Positions 3,199 to 33,177 of a stretch of 64,000 nt of DNA are shown here, one piece after another. The stretch spans positions 1,536,001-1,600,000 of the forward strand of contig OZ271854.1 in the NCBI GenBank assembly GCA_965601925.1. Direction: 5' to 3'. A model generated the notes under the pieces. The model was not told the DNA's origin, did not search any database, and worked only from the letters and a program-made list of their open reading frames with translations. This stretch comes from Alkalispirochaeta sp. (GTDB taxonomy: Bacteria > Spirochaetota > Spirochaetia > DSM-27196 > Alkalispirochaetaceae). Numbering within the stretch: position 1 is the first letter of the stretch; every line of letters begins with the position of its first letter. The position numbers and the translations under genes were made by a program.

Positions 3199-3331
3199 CA
3201 GGCAATTTCAAGAATCGGCGATTTTTGGAAATGCCAGGACTTCTAGAAATCATAATCATATACTGTGTATATAATTATGATTTCGACCCGATATTGAGGC
3301 TCTTGCAAAATGCAATTTAGAAAGAGCCTCA
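3199..3331. repeat. AT-rich triple-hairpin dispersed repeat, copy 1 (more degenerate)
   Basis: Aligns over ~133 bp with 29770-29902. Confidence 0.92.
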
Positions 3332-24236: not shown

Positions 24237-25034
24237 TCACCGGCTTGTTCGGTGTTCGACCAACTGTACCATGTACTCGAGATCGTCGGAGTTGAGCTCG
24301 GACTCGATAATCGTGATACCCACATCGACCACCGTCCCGGCCGGTTGCGGCCCGCCGATGGTCGTGTCATAGCGAATCGACTCTTTCGGGTACTCGCCGC
24401 CGGCGGCTTGCATGTCGAAAAACGGTTCATCCGCCAACGTTCGATCTCTGAGCGCGTCGACCGATTCGACACCGAAAAACGAGGCGGCCTCGCGATTCGC
24501 GTCCACGAGACGCCCGGCGGCGTCATAAATCATGATCGGTATCAGCGACTGTTCGAATATCGTGCGAAAGTGACGTTCCCGCGCGCGAACGACTCGCTCC
24601 GAGCGGTGGCGCGTGATGGCGGTCTGGAGAGTGCTGTCCAATTCGGTACGCGACCATGGTTTTACCAAATAGCCGTAGGGCGAAATACTCAATGCGCGAC
24701 GAATCGTCGTACGATCGGTGTGAGCGGTAAGAAACACGACGGGAATTCCCTGATTCGAACAAATGTGCTCCGCCGTCTCAACGCCGTCCTGCGCTCCGTC
24801 GATTTTGATATCCATAAGCGCGACGTCGGGAAGATGCTCCTCGGCCAAATTCTCGGCGGTCCGTCCGTCGGCGCAACGATACACATCGCGATATCCCAAG
24901 TCCTGTAGAGTGTTCTGGAGATCCAGGGCGATCAACGCCTCATCCTCGACTACCAAAACGGATGAGGCGGAACGAAGGTCCACATTCCGGTCACGAGCGG
25001 CTCTCGCAGATAGATCAAATATTTCGGGGTTCAT
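24237..25034 (-). CDS. Response regulator (REC + PAS)
   Basis: VVEDE, LMDIKI, FLTAH, YLVKP; followed by PAS (FRTIFEQ...DANREA). Confidence 0.85.
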   Translation of the reverse strand: MNPEIFDLSARAARDRNVDLRSASSVLVVEDEALIALDLQNTLQDLGYRDVYRCADGRTAENLAEEHLPDVALMDIKIDGAQDGVETAEHICSNQGIPVVFLTAHTDRTTIRRALSISPYGYLVKPWSRTELDSTLQTAITRHRSERVVRARERHFRTIFEQSLIPIMIYDAAGRLVDANREAASFFGVESVDALRDRTLADEPFFDMQAAGGEYPKESIRYDTTIGGPQPAGTVVDVGITIIESELNSDDLEYMVQLVEHRTSR

Positions 25035-25087
25035 GTCGGAATCTCTTACCTTGAATTGTAAATTATTACGGCTCCGATTTCTAATTT

Positions 25088-25930
25088 CTATCGAGAATAA
25101 ATGGAAACAACGACCGGCCCGGGTCGTCTGAGCGGTATCCGGCTCGGCAATACCTCGCCACCCGGGAGCTCGACGAGCGCGGAGCGTCCCCCGTCGAGGT
25201 TGAGCGCCCACGTTACTCCGGCCTCGGTCATCACGACGGCCAACTCATTCGTAGTGAGGCCGGCCCGGCCCGGTCCCGGACCGATACGGCTCCCCTCGGC
25301 GACGACGACTATCGTCTCGCGCCGATTACCGCCGACGGCGACGCGGGCTGCGCGGACCTGCCGCCCCGGATATCGGCCGGCAACATTGATCCCGTCCCGT
25401 ACCAACGGATAAAAGGCGCCCGCAGCGAGCCGGTACTCGTCCAGCGCCGCCGCCGGAAGCAAGCTCGCTTGCTCCCGCATCGACCAGCGGCATTCGGAGT
25501 CCACCACCAAAGCCCAATAGGGCGGTCGCGGCGCGCTTTCGAGCACGGCACCGTCGTAGACGATACCGACGGGCACCCGACCGTCGGCGTCATACCGCCA
25601 CGGTGTTACATTCACTGCGAGTGCCGACATGTCTCGGCGAGTATCGTCCGCCGCGCTTCGCCGAAGCTCGACACACGGCGCTTCACCGAGGCGAACAACC
25701 GTAACTCTCGCAACGTTGCTCCGGCGCACGGACCGTCGGTCGTCGATGCGTCTCCCCCCCGGGACGACGACAAAAAAAGACTCGACTGTTTGTGGTGACG
25801 GTGCGGCGTGCTTGTCCCGATACTCGACCGCCGACCGGGTAGCGCACGAGGCGCACACTAATGCGACAATCCAGAGGCTCGGAATAAGAACCGCTCGCCG
25901 CCCATTCACCGCTGACGCGGAACCGGTCAC
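25088..25930 (-). CDS. Phosphodiester glycosidase (NAGPA-like) family lipoprotein
   Basis: ARVAVG, VVAEG, ALNLDGGRS; CASC lipobox-like motif. Confidence 0.75.
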   Translation of the reverse strand: MTGSASAVNGRRAVLIPSLWIVALVCASCATRSAVEYRDKHAAPSPQTVESFFVVVPGGRRIDDRRSVRRSNVARVTVVRLGEAPCVELRRSAADDTRRDMSALAVNVTPWRYDADGRVPVGIVYDGAVLESAPRPPYWALVVDSECRWSMREQASLLPAAALDEYRLAAGAFYPLVRDGINVAGRYPGRQVRAARVAVGGNRRETIVVVAEGSRIGPGPGRAGLTTNELAVVMTEAGVTWALNLDGGRSALVELPGGEVLPSRIPLRRPGPVVVSIYSR

Positions 25931-25931
25931 A

Positions 25932-27209
25932 TCACGGCCGGACGCGCTTTCGATCCCTGGGAAAGAGAGAGGCTTCCTTCACGTTTTGGAGCCCAAGAAT
26001 CTTCTGAGTAATCCGCTCCAAGCCGATCGCAAACCCACCGTGGGGAGGGCACCCGTACTTGAAAATCGTGCAGTAATCACCCAACCCCTCTTCGGTGAGC
26101 CCGAACTTCGGGAGCGTTTCGGTAAGCATGCGATAATCGTGAATGCGCTGACCACCGGTAGTAATCTCGAGTCCGCGAAAGAGCAGATCGAAACTGCGCG
26201 TCCCCCGTCCTTCGGGATAGGTGTAGAACGGTCGCTTCTTTCGCGGGAACCCGAAGACGAATACCGCCTCGACGCCGTGCTCCTCAGCCGCCCACTCGCA
26301 GAGGACCCGCTCTCCCTCGGGATTGATCTCAAAGGCGGTCTTGCCGGTCCGCGCCCTGATGATCGTTTTGGCCTTGTCATGGTTGATTCTGGGGGTACGT
26401 GCAATCTCATCGGCGCTCGGCACGGTTGCGTCGAACTCCTTGAGAATATCGCCGTGGTCGTCGGCGACCCTGGAGAAGATGTGGCCCAATAGGCCCACTT
26501 CCAGATCCATCACATCGGATTCGCTGTCGATAAACCCCATCTCAACGTCGAGTGAGACGTACTCGTTCAGATGTCGCGGGGTATCGTGCTTCTCGGCGCG
26601 ATACGCGGCGCCGATCTCAAAGACGCGCTCCAGCCCGCTCGAGACCATCGCCTGCTTGTAGAACTGGGGGCTCTGGGCGAGATACACCCGCTCGCCGAAA
26701 TAGTCGACGGAGAACAGCCCCGTGCCCCCCTCGGTACCCGACCCGATGATCTTGGACGACTTGATCTCGGTAAATCCCTCGCTCCTCAGCCAGTCGGCGA
26801 AATAGTGCACGATCGCCGCCTGGAGTTCGAATATGCGGCGAATGTGCGGATTACGAAGGCTGACGATCCGATTGTCGAGAACTGAATCGATACCGACGTT
26901 GCCGAGATCTTGATTGACGGCGATCGGAAGATCGGGGTCGGCCTCCGCAAGAACCTCGGTCTCGGCGACGTGAAGCTCGTAGCCGCCGGGAGCCTTGTCA
27001 TTCGCACTGACCGTACCGCCGACGGTGACTACCGTTTCGTTACCGAACGTGGGCGGCGTTTGGTACACCAACTGCGCCATACCGCTGCGATCCCGCACCA
27101 TTACGAAGGTGATACCGCCGAGGTTCCGCACACGGTGGACCCATCCGGACACGGTGATATGCTCGTCGGCGTGGCGGGCTAAATCGGCCGCCAAAACTCT
27201 CTCATTCAT
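25932..27209 (-). CDS. aspS: Non-discriminating, archaeal-type (short) aspartyl-tRNA synthetase
   Basis: 425 aa without GAD insert; LAQSPQFYKQ, YRAEKHDTPRHLNE, GGQR, PPHGGFAIGLER. Confidence 0.92.
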   Translation of the reverse strand: MNERVLAADLARHADEHITVSGWVHRVRNLGGITFVMVRDRSGMAQLVYQTPPTFGNETVVTVGGTVSANDKAPGGYELHVAETEVLAEADPDLPIAVNQDLGNVGIDSVLDNRIVSLRNPHIRRIFELQAAIVHYFADWLRSEGFTEIKSSKIIGSGTEGGTGLFSVDYFGERVYLAQSPQFYKQAMVSSGLERVFEIGAAYRAEKHDTPRHLNEYVSLDVEMGFIDSESDVMDLEVGLLGHIFSRVADDHGDILKEFDATVPSADEIARTPRINHDKAKTIIRARTGKTAFEINPEGERVLCEWAAEEHGVEAVFVFGFPRKKRPFYTYPEGRGTRSFDLLFRGLEITTGGQRIHDYRMLTETLPKFGLTEEGLGDYCTIFKYGCPPHGGFAIGLERITQKILGLQNVKEASLFPRDRKRVRP

Positions 27210-27211
27210 CG

Positions 27212-29713
27212 TCAGTCCTCCATCAGGGCAAGTACGCGTTCGGTGTAACGACGATCGGCGGAGGCGTTCAATAACGCCTCTACCGCTTCGGCATCGATAT
27301 CGTCGTAGTCTCCGGCGCCGAGCGCCGCCTCAATCTGGGCCGTTATGAGGCGTGTCCACGCCGCCTCGGTCGCGAGCCCTCCCATGGGTACCGCACCTTC
27401 GCGCCACAACTGGTGAGCGGTCACATACTCTGAGAAATCGACCGCTCCCTCCTGTTGAGAGGTGCAAAAGAACTGTACACCTTTCCCGCGGCCGTGGGAA
27501 AAGGCCTTGCGGAGCGAAAACGGCGACTCGCGAAGGTTGGCCGTGCCGGTGTCGAAGAGCTCGAGTACGAAGTAACGGACTCCCGCATCCATGAGGGCCA
27601 TCAAGGCCTCTCCGCGGAGACCAGGATAGACTTTGACGATATGGGTGCGCCCAATCGCTACTTCCAAAGCGCGCTCCAAGGTCGGCTGCGATAGGCTCCG
27701 TGCCGATCGCGCAATCGCCCGTCCTCCGCGATGGAGCCCGTCACCGTTCCAATTGCGAAACCGCCCCGCGACGGCGCCCCCGGCCTCCGGTCTGTCCGCG
27801 ACTCGTACACTTTCAAACTTGAGATTGACCGCGAAGTAATCCGTTTCGCCGTAGACGACGTGAATTCCCCTCTCCCCTCCGGCGGCGACACCGACGGCGT
27901 TTCGAAGATTTACCGCGGCCTCGCCGGTCGGTCCCTCGTCGGTAGGCGCGGTACTCGCGGTCAGTACGACGGGTATCGACGCATCGGCGAAGAACCAGTA
28001 GAGCAGACTGGCGGTGTAGGAGAGTGTATCCGTCCCGTGACCGATCACGATTCCGCGACTGCGGCTCTGGTCGAGTGAATGGGCGGTATGCGCTACGAGA
28101 GCGGCCCAATCGGAGGGAGTGATCTCCTCGCTCAGAAACTGCCCCAGCCGTATCTCCTCGAAGCGTACGTCGCCGGGAAGGTCGGGATCGTTCCGAAAGA
28201 GTGTATCGAGACTCACCAAATCGCCCGGTACTACCAAGCCGTCGTCCCGGCGTTGCCCGGCGATCGCGCCGCCGAACGAGTACACCTCGATCGTACTGAC
28301 GGCAAAGCGCTCGGCGAGGAGCTCTTGCACAACTCGAGGCTCCGCCCGGCCGCTGGTGACCTTCATGATCCGGCCGACCAAAAAGCCGATCGGCTTGGTG
28401 TCGCCGGAAGCGATCTGTTCGGCGGCTTGGGTATTTGCCGCGAGCACGTCGTCGACGATACGGCCAAGCGCATCGCGGTCGGTTATCTGCTCCCAGCCTT
28501 GTTCGCGAATAATCGTCGCCGGGTCTTTGTCCTCTTCAAACACGAGTTCCAAGACCTGCTTGGCAATTTTTCCGTGAATCGTGCCATCGGCGAGAAGGCG
28601 TAGGAGATCGGCCAATCGATTCGGCGTGAGCGCCGTCGCCTCGAGCCGTTCGGCGCGCCGATTGAGTTGCTTGCGGACGTCGCCGGCGAGCCATATCGCG
28701 ACCTGCTGGGCGTCGGCGCCCGCGGAGACCGTCGATTCAAAGAAGTCGGCGCCCTCCTTCTCGTCGCAGAGAAAATCTGCCTGTGCGGCGCCGAGCCCGT
28801 ACTCGTCGACGAACCGCGCCCGTCTGGCGGCCGGCAGCTCCACTAATCGCCCCTCGACCTCGCGGAGAAAGGCCTCACCGGTTCGAAAATGGGGCAGGTC
28901 CGGTTCGGGAAAGTAGCGATAATCGTGAGAGCTCTCTTTGGTGCGCATACTCTCGGTAAGGTCGCGATTCTCGTTCCACAGACGCGTCTGTTGGGCAACC
29001 GTCCCGCTACGCTCAAGAATCTCCCGTTGGCGTTCGATCTCGTAATTAAGCGCCTTGCGCACGAAGCGCGAGCTGTTCAAGTTCTTGATCTCGACCTTGC
29101 TTCCGAGACCCCGGCCGCGTACATTGACCGAAACGTTCGCGTCGCAGCGCATCGAACCTTCTTCCATATTGCCGTCACACACGCCGAGATAGCGCACGAT
29201 GCGGCGTAACTCCTGCAGCAGAACCTCGGCCTCTTCGCCGATTTCCAGATCGGGCTCGGTGACGATCTCCAGGAGGGGTGTGCCAGCGCGATTGTAATCC
29301 AGAAGCGACATGTCGCCGGCGTGGATCATTTTGCCCGCGTCCTCTTCCAGATGAATCTCGTGGATTCGCACGCGCTTTTTCTTTTTGTGGAACTCGAGAT
29401 CGAGGTACCCGTTGCGCCCTACCGGCTCGTGAAATTGCGATATCTGGTAATTCTTGGGAAGATCGGGATAGAAGTAGTTTTTGCGATCGAAGACGCACTC
29501 GTCATTGAGCTCGCAATTGAGTGAACGCGCGACCGTGTACGCCATGGCGATCGCCTCGCCGTTGAGCGCCGGCAACACCCCGGGGTAGCCCATGCACACG
29601 GGGCACACGTTGGTGTTGGGCTCGTCGCCGAAATTGGCGCGACAGCCGCAAAACACCTTGGTTGCCGTCAGAAGCTGGATATGAATTTCGAGCCCTACAA
29701 ACGATTGGTACAC
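27212..29713 (-). CDS. gatB: GatB fused to C-terminal asparaginase/GatD-like domain
   Basis: GLEIHIQL, RKNYFYPDLPKNYQISQ, HLEEDAGK, MRCDAN, YRYFPEPD, YqeY tail; then FGGAIAG, HGTDT, PVVLTAS. Confidence 0.92.
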   Translation of the reverse strand: MYQSFVGLEIHIQLLTATKVFCGCRANFGDEPNTNVCPVCMGYPGVLPALNGEAIAMAYTVARSLNCELNDECVFDRKNYFYPDLPKNYQISQFHEPVGRNGYLDLEFHKKKKRVRIHEIHLEEDAGKMIHAGDMSLLDYNRAGTPLLEIVTEPDLEIGEEAEVLLQELRRIVRYLGVCDGNMEEGSMRCDANVSVNVRGRGLGSKVEIKNLNSSRFVRKALNYEIERQREILERSGTVAQQTRLWNENRDLTESMRTKESSHDYRYFPEPDLPHFRTGEAFLREVEGRLVELPAARRARFVDEYGLGAAQADFLCDEKEGADFFESTVSAGADAQQVAIWLAGDVRKQLNRRAERLEATALTPNRLADLLRLLADGTIHGKIAKQVLELVFEEDKDPATIIREQGWEQITDRDALGRIVDDVLAANTQAAEQIASGDTKPIGFLVGRIMKVTSGRAEPRVVQELLAERFAVSTIEVYSFGGAIAGQRRDDGLVVPGDLVSLDTLFRNDPDLPGDVRFEEIRLGQFLSEEITPSDWAALVAHTAHSLDQSRSRGIVIGHGTDTLSYTASLLYWFFADASIPVVLTASTAPTDEGPTGEAAVNLRNAVGVAAGGERGIHVVYGETDYFAVNLKFESVRVADRPEAGGAVAGRFRNWNGDGLHRGGRAIARSARSLSQPTLERALEVAIGRTHIVKVYPGLRGEALMALMDAGVRYFVLELFDTGTANLRESPFSLRKAFSHGRGKGVQFFCTSQQEGAVDFSEYVTAHQLWREGAVPMGGLATEAAWTRLITAQIEAALGAGDYDDIDAEAVEALLNASADRRYTERVLALMED

Positions 29714-29769
29714 GCTTTCTACACCTCCCTCCGCATCGATACGGTGCGACGCGGCCGGGTTTTATATCA

Positions 29770-29902
29770 CAGGCAATTTCAAAAATCGACGATTTTTGAA
29801 ATTGTCAGGATCTTTAGAAATCATAATTATATATCATGTATATAATTATGATTTCGACCCGATATTGAGGCTCTTGAAAAATGCAATTTTTCAAGAGCCT
29901 CA
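29770..29902. repeat. AT-rich triple-hairpin dispersed repeat, copy 2 (between gatA and gatB)
   Basis: Three consecutive inverted repeats; matches 3199-3331. Confidence 0.92.
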
Positions 29903-29940
29903 TCAGATCGTCGAACGCATCGGCGGCGTCGACGGGTCCT

Positions 29941-31347
29941 TTATCGCCAATGAGAGAAGGAGACGCTCTCGCGTGGGAACTGCATCGGCACGACCGACGC
30001 CAGCTGCCGCGCCACAGCGAATAACCGTTCCTCGCTGAATGAAGGTCCCATGAGCTGCATACCGACCGGAAGGCCGCCCTCCACGCCCGTCGGCACGGTC
30101 AAAGCCGGTGTTCCCGTCAAATTCGCCGTCCCGGTAAACCGATCGGCGACCTTCTGCTGAAACGGGTCCATCCCTTCGTCTCCGTGGAGAAAGGCCTGAG
30201 TCGGAAACGCGGGAAGCAGGAGGGCATCGACCGATCGAAATACCTCATCAAGTTCTCGTCGAATCAACGTGCGAATCTTTTGCGCCCGGGCATAGTACCG
30301 ATCCTGAAAGCCGCTGCGAAGCACGTAGGTGCCGAGGACCACGCGGAGTTTGACCTCATCGCCGAATCCTTCGCTGCGCGCCTTGCGCATGAGTTCCTCG
30401 GGATTCTCAGCATATATCGGATGGTATCCGTAGCGCACGCCGTTGTAGCGCGCCAGGTTGGCGCTCGCCTCCGCTGAGGCGATCGTGTAGTACGCCGGGA
30501 CAACGTACTCCAGCGTCGAAAGGGTGATCGTCTCCGTACGATACCCGAGCGTACCGAGCGCATCGGCGGTGTCCCGATAGTTCCGCGCCACCGCATCGTC
30601 CAGCCCGAGGTCGCCGCCGAGGATGCCGACGGTCCCGCCGGGGGCCGCCTCGGCCGGTCGTTCGGCATCGGCGGGAATCACTACCGAGCTCTGGTCCTTC
30701 TCGTCCGCACCGCGCATCGCGCGATAGGTATCGGCAAGCATATCGATATCGGCGGCGATCACTCCGACGACCTCCAGGGACGAGGCATACGCGACCAGCC
30801 CGTATCGCGAAACGGTGCCGTAGGTCGGCTTGAGGCCGTACACGCCGCAGAACGCCGCAGGCTGGCGGATCGAGCCGCCGGTGTCGCTGCCGATCGCAAC
30901 GGGAACCAGCTGTTGTGCCACCGCCGCCGCCGAACCGCCGCTCGAGCCGCCGGCAACGCGCTGCGAATCCCAGGGATTGTTCGTGACTTTGAGCGCCGAA
31001 TTGTCGGTGGAACTTCCCATGCCGAACTCATCGAGATTCGTCTTGCCGACGATCTCGGCGCCGGCGGCACGCAATCGTTCGACTGAGCGTGCATCGTAGG
31101 GACAGACGAACTCCTCGAGCATGCGTGAGCCGCATGTGAGTCTATACCCCTTGACAGCAATGTTATCCTTTACGGCGATGGGAATCCGTAACGTTACATT
31201 CGAGCTATCCGAGGACACGCCGCTCGGCGACCACTGTGCGGGGTCGCCGTACTCCAGAAACGCACCGACACGACGATCTTGTTCCTGTATGAAGCGCGCA
31301 TACGATGAACGCGACTCGGCAGAAAGAGATTTGTCCCACATCGGCAT
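29941..31347 (-). CDS. gatA: Amidotransferase subunit A
   Basis: VKDNI, TNLDEFGMGSS, GGSSGGS, GSDTGGSIRQP, GFGDEVKLR. Confidence 0.96.
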   Translation of the reverse strand: MPMWDKSLSAESRSSYARFIQEQDRRVGAFLEYGDPAQWSPSGVSSDSSNVTLRIPIAVKDNIAVKGYRLTCGSRMLEEFVCPYDARSVERLRAAGAEIVGKTNLDEFGMGSSTDNSALKVTNNPWDSQRVAGGSSGGSAAAVAQQLVPVAIGSDTGGSIRQPAAFCGVYGLKPTYGTVSRYGLVAYASSLEVVGVIAADIDMLADTYRAMRGADEKDQSSVVIPADAERPAEAAPGGTVGILGGDLGLDDAVARNYRDTADALGTLGYRTETITLSTLEYVVPAYYTIASAEASANLARYNGVRYGYHPIYAENPEELMRKARSEGFGDEVKLRVVLGTYVLRSGFQDRYYARAQKIRTLIRRELDEVFRSVDALLLPAFPTQAFLHGDEGMDPFQQKVADRFTGTANLTGTPALTVPTGVEGGLPVGMQLMGPSFSEERLFAVARQLASVVPMQFPRESVSFSHWR

Positions 31348-31626
31348 CTACAAGACATTGGGGATCGCGATGAGTCGATCCTCGAGATCGGGTGCATTCT
31401 CGAGTAGGCTGTCGGGATCGGTCTCGGATCGAAGCACGTCGGGCCGCACGCGATATGCGCTTTCCGATGCGTGTGTTGTCGGCGGTAGGTGGTCGACATC
31501 CACGGATGCCATGACGGCAAAATACTCGAGCATCTGCTCGACCGCGCCCTCAAAAGCTGCGATCTGTGCGTCGTCCAGCTCGAGCATCGCCATGTCGACC
31601 GTCGTTTTGAGCTCGGACGCGTCCAT
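31348..31626 (-). CDS. gatC: Amidotransferase subunit C
   Basis: MAMLEL...LLENAP...IAIPNVL; directly upstream of gatA. Confidence 0.9.
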   Translation of the reverse strand: MDASELKTTVDMAMLELDDAQIAAFEGAVEQMLEYFAVMASVDVDHLPPTTHASESAYRVRPDVLRSETDPDSLLENAPDLEDRLIAIPNVL

Positions 31627-31749
31627 GGGGGCAACTATGACAGTGAGGTATTGGCCTGTCAAGCAAGGACTTGGCGGCCATTTGACGAACCGGTCGGCAC
31701 GCGCTATGTTTGGCATCGCTCCACAGGCAAATCAATAGGTACAGCAGAC

Positions 31750-33177
31750 GTGGTAACCAAGAAAGAATTCCCCACTATTCATTTTTACGATCAAGACTTC
31801 GTAGACATCTACGAGCAAACCTGGGCGTGGATCCAGGACCACTGGCAAAAGGCGACGAGCCGCAACGGGTTTGAACCGCGGTTTTTTGTCGCTCCGGACG
31901 CGGATAGGATAAATCAGACCGACGCGATTTTCTCGTCTTTCTTTCTCGTGTACAGCAACAAGAACTATCCGGCCGCTCCTCAACTGGACAACTTTTACAA
32001 GAAGCAGGAAGACGACGGTGCGATCCGCCTCGAATACTCTCTTGACACCGGACAGCCGATTTTTTCGGAGGATAACCCCGCTGGTGTCGCGCCCCCGCTG
32101 TTAGCGTGGGCGGAGTACAACATGTATCACAAGGTGGGCAACAAAAAGCGCATCAAAGAGGTCATGGCGGTGCTCGAACGGTATGTACAATGGCTGGAGA
32201 ACACCTTCAAGGACGACACCGGCCTGTATCACGTACCGATCTCGGCGACCGGGATGCTCAATGCGCCGCGCGAAACCGCGTACTATCCCGTGGACTTCAA
32301 CATCCAAGTAGCGCTCAACGCCTCGTGCATGGCGAAACTGGGCCACGTACTCAACGATAAGGACATCGAGTTTCGCTACCGTCGACAGTACTTCTCGCTC
32401 AAGACGAGAATCAATCAGCTCATGTGGAACGACGAAGCCGGGTTCTATTTCGACTTGGACAAGAATCGAGAGCAGGTGCCGGTGAAGACCGTCGCGACGT
32501 TTTGGGCTCTTTTGACCGACATCCCCAACGAGGCGCGCTCCAGTCGCTTGATTGAGCATCTCAAGGATCCGGAAAGCTTCGGCACCGAGAATCCCTTTCC
32601 CTCTTTAGCGGTAAACGAGCCGGCGTTCTCGGAGGCGGGAGAGGGATGGCGCGGGTCGGTTTTCCCTCAGTACACGTTTATCATTATCAAAGGACTGGAA
32701 AAGCAGCACCAATGGGAGTTGGCGCGGGAATACGCGATACGCCATCTCTACTACATGCTCGATACGCTGCACCCGGAGGGAAACAAGCGGGGTAACGTGT
32801 GGGAGGCGTATCGTCCCACCCGGGACGGTGAAGCGCAATGGGAGGGTAATCCCGACTTTCCGCGGCCGATGCACCTTCCGGCCGTCGGGCTCTCGACGAT
32901 TGCCCTTATGATCGAGAATGTGGTCGGGCTCGAGGTAAGCTTGCCGCGAAAAACGGTTCGCTGGATCGTGCCGACTTTGGAAATCATGGGTATCGAGAAT
33001 CTCAACCTACGGCGCAATACCATCACGATTCTCAGTCAAAAGAGCGGTCGCGGCTGGGAGATACGACACGAATCGGAGAAGTTGTACTATTTCACGCTCG
33101 ATCTTCTGAGCCAAAAAAAGGAAAAAACGCTGCCGATTCCCTCGGGAAAGTGCTCGATGCTGGTCGATAAGCTATAA
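31750..33177 (+). CDS. GH63/MGH1-like (alpha/alpha)6 glycoside hydrolase-family protein
   Basis: PPLLAWAE, GMLNAPR, LMWNDEAGFYFD, GWRGSVFP, VWEAYRP; start uncertain. Confidence 0.75.
   Translation: MVTKKEFPTIHFYDQDFVDIYEQTWAWIQDHWQKATSRNGFEPRFFVAPDADRINQTDAIFSSFFLVYSNKNYPAAPQLDNFYKKQEDDGAIRLEYSLDTGQPIFSEDNPAGVAPPLLAWAEYNMYHKVGNKKRIKEVMAVLERYVQWLENTFKDDTGLYHVPISATGMLNAPRETAYYPVDFNIQVALNASCMAKLGHVLNDKDIEFRYRRQYFSLKTRINQLMWNDEAGFYFDLDKNREQVPVKTVATFWALLTDIPNEARSSRLIEHLKDPESFGTENPFPSLAVNEPAFSEAGEGWRGSVFPQYTFIIIKGLEKQHQWELAREYAIRHLYYMLDTLHPEGNKRGNVWEAYRPTRDGEAQWEGNPDFPRPMHLPAVGLSTIALMIENVVGLEVSLPRKTVRWIVPTLEIMGIENLNLRRNTITILSQKSGRGWEIRHESEKLYYFTLDLLSQKKEKTLPIPSGKCSMLVDKL

Follow-up and report, generated by a model that had tools for sequence, protein, structure and literature searches.

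A spirochaetal GatB fused to an asparaginase-like domain that lacks the nucleophile threonine

Within a window of 64,000 nucleotides (nt) from Alkalispirochaeta sp. (assembly GCA_965601925.1, contig OZ271854.1, positions 1,536,001 to 1,600,000 of the forward strand), we analysed a gene in which gatB continues without interruption into the coding sequence of an asparaginase-like domain, termed AsnD here. All coordinates below refer to this window unless stated otherwise. The gene, at 27212..29713 on the minus strand, is a single open reading frame (ORF) of 833 amino acids (aa) with a GTG start and its stop codon at 27212-27214, and was delimited from the ORF list together with Pfam and NCBIfam matches. 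Residues 1-469 constitute a canonical GatB and residues 470-833 a complete two-lobed asparaginase fold, with no linker between them. The gene belongs to an operon with the order gatC-gatA-gatB~AsnD-aspS2, all on the minus strand.

The GatB half contains the GatB_N catalytic (cradle) domain (residues 5-282, 28868..29701; Pfam, 383 bits) and the GatB YqeY tail (GatB_Yqey, PF02637; residues 323-469, 28307..28747; 151.7 bits), both on the minus strand as are the features of AsnD. Over residues 2-469 it passed the GatB equivalog models of NCBIfam, NF004012 with 621 bits (cut-off 338) and TIGR00133 with 548 bits (cut-off 314.8), and residues 1-469 aligned end to end with the solved GatB chains 3h0l_B, 2df4_B and 3al0_B (E 8e-143 to 3e-131). 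The Mg2+ ligands of the GatB kinase/transamidase pocket, which we take to be H12, E124 and E150 of the Staphylococcus aureus protein, correspond to H11, E123 and E149 of the fusion, whose numbering is that of S. aureus GatB minus 1. All three are kept in the fusion as well as in 20 out of 20 relatives with the same operon, and we predict the GatB half to be a normal enzyme.

AsnD (27215..28306) directly follows the YqeY tail, and its limits were set from Pfam, NCBIfam, alignments and structure models. The N-terminal lobe (Pfam Asparaginase, PF00710; residues 475-624, 27842..28291) scored above threshold, with 85.9 bits against a cut-off of 22.5, and holds S528-E529-E530 and H559-G-T561-D562-T, whereas the C-terminal lobe (Pfam Asparaginase_C, PF17763; residues 691-792, 27338..27643) was sub-threshold with 30.2 bits against 34.6 and is the most conserved part of the domain. 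The NCBIfam models for type I asparaginases and GatD matched residues ~460-790 far under their cut-offs, TIGR00519 (type I asparaginase) reaching 102 bits against 260.5. The motifs FGGAIA, HGTDT, PVVLTAS and AVNLKF were all found in the ORF, and the initial annotation of this locus, which had read an 833-aa GatB-asparaginase ORF bearing the last three, agreed with the Pfam and NCBIfam results. At the extreme C terminus, residues 799-833 (27215-27319) carry an acidic insertion of ~25 residues that is absent from most relatives.

The fusion is not peculiar to the assembly. A 25-kb contig from one public sequencing run covered the ORF with 0 differences, and two other runs, including one that belongs to a separate study, gave contigs that read through the GatB/AsnD junction with no indel; the first three public runs represent one sample, which may be the source sample of the assembly. 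Neither a stop nor a frameshift at the junction, both of which the initial annotation had considered, appeared in these contigs. It had also considered that relatives might encode two separate genes; the close relatives encode one. GatB_N, YqeY and Asparaginase were present in one protein in 115 of the 120 best database relatives, the other 5 being pieces of 458-642 aa, and fused proteins of 815-818 aa were found in all three genomes of the same genus.

To place the active-site residues of AsnD, we used HMMER alignments to the solved asparaginases 9ufr and 9ufq and to Pyrococcus abyssi GatD (1zq1), together with a 71-sequence MAFFT alignment that included Escherichia coli AnsA. In every alignment the nucleophile threonine (AnsA T14, the second T of TGGT) fell on Ala483, whose codon lies at 28265..28267. 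Among 110 full-length relatives this column contains A in 105 cases, S in 3, V in 1 and T in 1. The first threonine of TGGT is also replaced, by Phe480, in a column of F (88), M (14) and L (8) in the same relatives. The FGGAIA reading and the conserved Thr to Ala change put forward initially were therefore borne out, with the addition that both threonines of the motif have changed. AnsA Tyr24, the loop tyrosine, aligned to Leu493 in a variable column. The position of the catalytic lysine fell on F633, S635 or V638, depending on the alignment, and none of these is a lysine in the window. Lys632 of AVNLKF, proposed earlier to be the catalytic lysine, aligned 1-3 residues before that position and could not be equated with it; it is the only conserved basic residue nearby (K in 87 and R in 23 of the 110 relatives). 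With the nucleophile threonine and the loop tyrosine gone and no catalytic lysine placeable, canonical hydrolysis by AsnD appears very unlikely.

Other residues of the presumed pocket were retained. Ser528, Glu529, Thr561 and Asp562 were each found in 110 out of 110 relatives and were also kept in the 65 genome loci described below. They are the equivalents of S60, S61, T91 and D92 of AnsA, which presumably hold the backbone groups of the substrate. This pattern resembles that of laboratory Thr to Ala asparaginases holding Asn: titles of PDB entries describe engineered variants of this kind that were crystallised with Asn bound (Blasnase-T13A and guinea-pig T19A).

The fold was assessed with AlphaFold models of AsnD alone (predicted local distance difference test, pLDDT, 77; predicted template modelling score, pTM, 0.82; alignment of 11 sequences) and of the full-length protein (pLDDT 88.4, pTM 0.63; 113 sequences), both of which showed the complete two-lobed fold. 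Foldseek returned template modelling scores of 0.61-0.75 to asparaginases and GatD with probability 1.00, and VIA-align gave Z scores of 26-28 over ~300 residues, at a root-mean-square deviation of ~3 Å, against type I and type II asparaginases. GatD (2d6f_A) reached Z 26.4 in VIA-align. Since type I asparaginases, type II asparaginases and GatD were tied within 1.5 Z, the fold does not single out GatD.

An exhaustive search of 1.84 billion representatives with AsnD yielded 2931 matches, of which 32 had E<=1e-30. Members of the fused family extended down to about 1e-28 and were followed by stand-alone type-I-like asparaginases with TGGT and HGTDT intact (E about 1e-25); true GatD proteins appeared only at 1e-17 to 1e-14, had lengths of 423-453 aa and matched from near residue 85-142. 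The GatD-specific N-terminal part is absent from AsnD, the matches beginning at positions 50-71 of the GatD models, and the scores for the GatD equivalogs were well below their cut-offs (TIGR02153, 93.4 bits versus 324; NF003217, 90.5 versus 310). A quick maximum-likelihood tree was built from 70 rows, with the Shimodaira-Hasegawa-like approximate likelihood ratio test (SH-aLRT) as the only measure of support; in it all 26 fused domains formed one clade (100) on a long stem, and the 8 GatD sequences formed a separate one (99). The fused clade takes in many genera. Judged from these comparisons, AsnD appears to have one origin, separate from that of GatD. Since the two clades are separate, the architecture parallels that of GatDE, and descent from GatD is not supported by the tree; the earlier picture of a GatDE-like architecture grafted onto GatCAB consequently holds only as an analogy.

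Candidates for a stand-alone domain without the nucleophile were rejected. Short matches of high identity proved to be fragments, P0122, P0132 and P0134 carrying YqeY tails, and P0127 and P0150 both start at a Met inside the motif. No convincing split form was seen in searches that included an incomplete word-index search of the shorter length class. At locus L108 of a Clostridia metagenome-assembled genome (1243-5054), an independent asparaginase-like gene of 352 aa, with TGGT intact, comes after gatA and gatB. Its product groups with P0163, P0168, P0174 and P0176 in a divergent clade of stand-alone proteins from which the usual lysine seems absent. At this locus, outside the spirochaetes, GatB and an asparaginase-like protein may be associated without being fused.

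The fusion is widespread in Spirochaetia. Among 401 species genomes of Spirochaetota, 11 contained the intact fused gene and 2 more contained pieces or a broken copy, while 15 others had only ordinary stand-alone asparaginases. A scan of species genomes gave 71 loci with the domain, from Alkalispirochaeta, Spirochaetaceae, Spirochaetales, Treponema, Treponemataceae, Gracilinema caldarium (L042) and Breznakiella homolactica (L099), and these fall into two classes. In the operon-type class, comprising 20 full-length loci and the window, the order gatC-gatA-gatB~AsnD-aspS2 is kept and the GatB core is 60-78% identical to that of the window. In the Treponema-type class, comprising 45 full-length loci (within L038-L099), the fused gene stands alone, and its GatB core and AsnD are 29-45% and 35-48% identical to those of the window; gatC, gatA and aspS2 were not found within 8 kb of these 45 loci.

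The GatB-like part of the Treponema-type proteins shows a consistent set of changes, namely H11 to R (45/45), E149 to R (43/45), H121 to R (45/45), D191 to N (45/45) and E208 to K (45/45), along with the loss of Lys78. Two of the three Mg2+ ligands, H11 and E149, are thus replaced by Arg, while the AsnD motifs stay. The GatE equivalents of these ligands are described as essential in a review (PMC2330236). Ten Treponema-type genomes were examined (among them G305, G317, G323, G329 and G347). Eight carry a separate, canonical and unfused GatB together with GatA; in the other two (98-99% complete, one searched minus 16 kb) neither GatA nor a canonical GatB was found. A further locus, G117:C21:43183-45358, holds a Treponema-type fused gene that is broken: an in-frame TAG interrupts its GatB-like part, and its asparaginase-like part is divided between two frames.

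Synteny and phylogeny connect the two classes. An MGH1-like glycoside hydrolase lies upstream of gatC in 16 of the 20 operon-type loci and directly upstream of the fused gene, mostly at 24-270 nt, in 36 of the 45 Treponema-type loci. The copy in the window (31750..33177, plus strand) is the divergent neighbour of the operon and is 59% identical to the neighbour at L058. In the AsnD tree the Treponema-type group is nested inside an operon-type grade (98). The fused genes of the two classes are positional orthologues, with the glycoside hydrolase as their common synteny anchor. This hydrolase, which resembles mannosylglycerate hydrolase and trehalase, keeps its place in 52 of the 65 loci, an unusually stable synteny for unrelated functions. 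Because the fused protein has outlived both its partners and its own kinase site, the function that is conserved belongs to AsnD together with the GatB body and is not transamidation. The role of AsnD is separable from transamidation.

AsnD is under purifying selection and is not drifting. Mean pairwise identity among the 110 relatives was 0.54 and 0.68 for its two lobes, compared to 0.57 for YqeY and 0.79 for GatB_N; in the C-terminal lobe, 42 of 112 columns have one residue in at least 95% of the sequences, and across 110-113 sequences dozens of columns are invariant. The ratio of nonsynonymous to synonymous substitution rates (dN/dS) was 0.130 for AsnD, 0.128 for YqeY, 0.068 for GatB_N and 0.50 for the last 35 residues, all from L122-L123, the only pair unsaturated at synonymous sites. 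Neutral evolution of the domain, another possibility named in the initial annotation, does not agree with these values. That AsnD is a decaying relic or an assembly artefact devoid of function is scarcely credible, since the broken copy in G117 stands against a dN/dS of 0.13, dozens of invariant columns, one clade spread over many genera and a junction confirmed by the public-run contigs.

The partner genes in the operon are those of a complete GatCAB. The amidase subunit gene gatA (29941..31347, 468 aa) matched TIGR00132 with 478.7 bits (cut-off 481.1) and Pfam Amidase with 427 bits, and the amidase-signature stretches are present in its product. For gatC (31348..31716) only residues 31-122 of the listed ORF fall within the family match, and the true start probably lies further into that ORF. 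Downstream, aspS2 (25932..27209) begins 2 nt past the gatB stop and encodes an archaeal-type, non-discriminating aspartyl-tRNA synthetase (AspRS) of 425 aa (NF003483, 504 bits; TIGR00458, 376 bits). The gene set and the 2-nt gap before aspS2 are as first described. To these we add a spacer of 227 nt between gatA and gatB (29714..29940, minus strand) with a triple-hairpin repeat of ~135 nt (about 29769-29902).

The repeat in the spacer is AT-rich, forms three consecutive hairpins (RNA fold z-score −9.2) and has at least 8 near-full-length copies (85-98% identity) elsewhere in the genome, one of them at about 3199-3331 of the window. It looks like a small mobile or repetitive extragenic palindromic (REP)-like intergenic element inserted into the operon. 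In L029, a relative from Alkalispirochaeta, gatA and gatB nearly abut. No family was matched by an Rfam scan of 25000-33000, and a scan for promoters and terminators gave consensus-level matches only, terminator-like sites being rarer than in shuffled sequences.

In the genome of 5.05 Mb the fusion is the only GatB match. The same genome also encodes asparaginyl-tRNA synthetase (AsnRS, 614 bits), glutaminyl-tRNA synthetase (GlnRS, 740 bits), a bacterial-type AspRS and three clustered AsnB-like proteins; AsnA was not found in it. In view of AsnRS, GlnRS and the bacterial AspRS, the gat operon is not needed for decoding. The three AsnB-like homologues (419-496 bits) lie within 44 kb at 1656143-1699605 of the genome, 56-100 kb past the end of the window, and their clustering suggests a polysaccharide or modification locus over housekeeping asparagine synthesis. 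The only other PF00710 match in the genome is a 166-aa ORF (about 2598262-2598762, plus strand) that consists of the N-terminal asparaginase lobe alone, with TGGT and HGTDT intact.

When compared to known systems, the fusion is like the GatB of bacterial GatCAB (Aquifex aeolicus 3h0l_B, S. aureus 2df4_B and Thermotoga maritima 3al0_B) in its GatB body, its Mg ligands and the company of gatC and gatA, but the solved chains have 466-483 aa, whereas the fusion has 364 additional C-terminal residues of asparaginase fold. With archaeal GatDE (1zq1, 2d6f) it shares the combination of a tRNA-dependent kinase of the GatB/E type with a type I asparaginase fold. In contrast to GatDE, the parts are covalently fused with GatB preceding the asparaginase, GatA and GatC are present and the nucleophile threonine is an alanine; AsnD also differs from GatD in having no GatD N-terminal part, in its scores far below the cut-offs of the GatD models and in its separate clade. 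The type I L-asparaginases (E. coli AnsA 2p2d; Pyrococcus/Thermococcus 4q0m, 5ot0 and 9ufq) are alike in the two-lobed fold, HGTDT and the substrate-site Ser, but AsnD differs from them by Thr to Ala at the nucleophile, Thr to Phe at the first motif position, the lost loop Tyr and the unplaceable Lys.

A last comparison concerns the operon as a whole. In systems of the Thermus/Deinococcus type, a genome with AsnRS additionally encodes GatCAB and a second AspRS of archaeal type. The present genome is similar in having AsnRS, GlnRS and a bacterial AspRS plus an operon that couples an archaeal-type AspRS2 to GatCAB, and by this analogy the gat operon looks like a Thermus/Deinococcus-type tRNA-dependent route to asparagine. 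The two differ in the three AsnB-like genes found here in addition, and the Thermus/Deinococcus-type systems have, to our knowledge, a plain GatB.

Based on these observations we tentatively propose, with somewhat less than even confidence, that AsnD is a non-catalytic amino-acid-binding module which pairs two GatCAB complexes and tunes or organises tRNA-dependent asparagine synthesis, and that it does not supply ammonia. By analogy with the Thr to Ala asparaginases, AsnD would bind an amino acid, probably Asn, Asp or Gln, without cleaving it. As in asparaginases and in the GatD2 core, two copies of AsnD may form a homodimer and would then pair two GatCAB into a (GatCAB)2 assembly reminiscent of GatD2E2; in GatDE, GatD is described as a homodimer (PMC2330236) that binds two GatE and forms the dimeric core. 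Ligand occupancy would, in turn, tune the synthesis of asparagine on tRNA. The intact gatA in the operon means that AsnD is not needed as an ammonia donor.

Several points weigh against this proposal. Half of the catalytic machinery, Thr561 and Asp562, shows no variation within the close family, so that residual or altered chemistry is possible, and the nucleophile position is occupied by Ser or Thr in 15 of the 45 Treponema-type members. The conserved pocket residues are, in addition, part of structural turns in the core of the fold and of its intimate-dimer interface, and given such structural and interface roles their invariance is no proof of ligand binding. A bulky Phe, Met or Leu at the first motif threonine could fill the pocket, and in the more distant fused members P0152-P0154 the position of Thr561 is occupied by Leu. 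At the level of the genome, AsnRS, GlnRS and three AsnB-like genes are present, and the purpose of the operon itself is one that we infer. An allosteric Asn site of the AnsA type was considered as well and rejected: Arg240 and Thr162, presumably the residues of this site in E. coli AnsA, are Glu718 and Lys632 here in the MAFFT alignment.

The sensor pseudo-enzyme and the oligomerisation scaffold, both raised in the initial annotation, remain live readings, and we prefer tuning by a ligand. As a pure scaffold, AsnD would only dimerise GatB, without sensing a ligand, and might dock the dimeric AspRS2 together with tRNA(Asn) into a stable transamidosome. We regard this as unlikely, although it deserves serious attention. 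Hp0100 of Helicobacter pylori is reportedly an accessory transamidosome scaffold, which counts in its favour, and the next gene after the fusion is aspS2 in the 20 full-length operon-type loci, as it is in the window. Proteins of the asparaginase fold and GatD are dimers (PMC2330236). Yet AsnD is kept in Treponema-type genomes with no aspS2, gatA or gatC at the locus, which rules out docking of AspRS2 as its general role, and the invariance of S528, E529, T561 and D562 exceeds what a plain interface needs, a point that is not decisive.

A bolder version of the sensing proposal is that AsnD is a natural "substrate-trap" asparaginase which would sense free asparagine, or a related amino acid, and gate tRNA-dependent asparagine synthesis, the Treponema-type protein then being a non-enzymatic amino-acid/tRNA sensing factor made from two dead enzymes. 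We put this forward as a speculation that is unlikely to hold in full.

It is improbable, in our estimation, that AsnD instead has tRNA as its ligand, either the molecule itself or the aminoacyl end of Asp-tRNA(Asn) or Asn-tRNA(Asn), and holds or hands over substrate or product beside the tRNA-binding YqeY tail. The domain is joined directly to this tail, and in the Treponema-type proteins it persists on a GatB-like body in which Arg and Lys have taken the place of the active-site His and Glu, a change that would suit binding without chemistry. On the other hand, an esterified alpha-carboxylate could not make the usual contact with Ser, and we know of no asparaginase-fold protein that binds tRNA.

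A working second amidase, which would donate ammonia like GatD by a non-canonical mechanism, for example with Thr561 as the nucleophile, is more doubtful still, and it is the least supported of the three roles suggested initially. The conservation of Thr561, Asp562 and the nearby basic residue 632, and the Ser or Thr at the nucleophile position of some Treponema-type members, would agree with such an activity. However, this position is Ala in 105 of the 110 relatives, the loop Tyr is lost, the catalytic Lys is unplaceable and GatA is intact. Furthermore, AsnD presumably sits on a mobile tail far from the ammonia tunnel of GatB, as GatCAB structures indicate, and the domain persists in proteins whose GatB half, having lost its Mg ligands, would need no ammonia.

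A full-text literature search, with subscription-only papers outside its reach, found no paper on a GatB-asparaginase fusion, and the searchable papers describe no bacterial GatCAB that is regulated or carries an asparaginase. Public records label the relatives only "GatB". GatCAB and GatDE are the textbook routes to Asn- and Gln-tRNA. Against this background, a conserved nucleophile-less asparaginase fold on GatB suggests two possibilities: an unrecognised amino-acid-sensing control of tRNA-dependent asparagine synthesis, or a dimeric organisation like that of GatDE at which bacteria arrived independently. The Treponema-type descendants represent a natural experiment that separates the role of the domain from transamidation, and their proteins may represent a new family without enzymatic activity in spirochaetes that live in the gut or in association with hosts.

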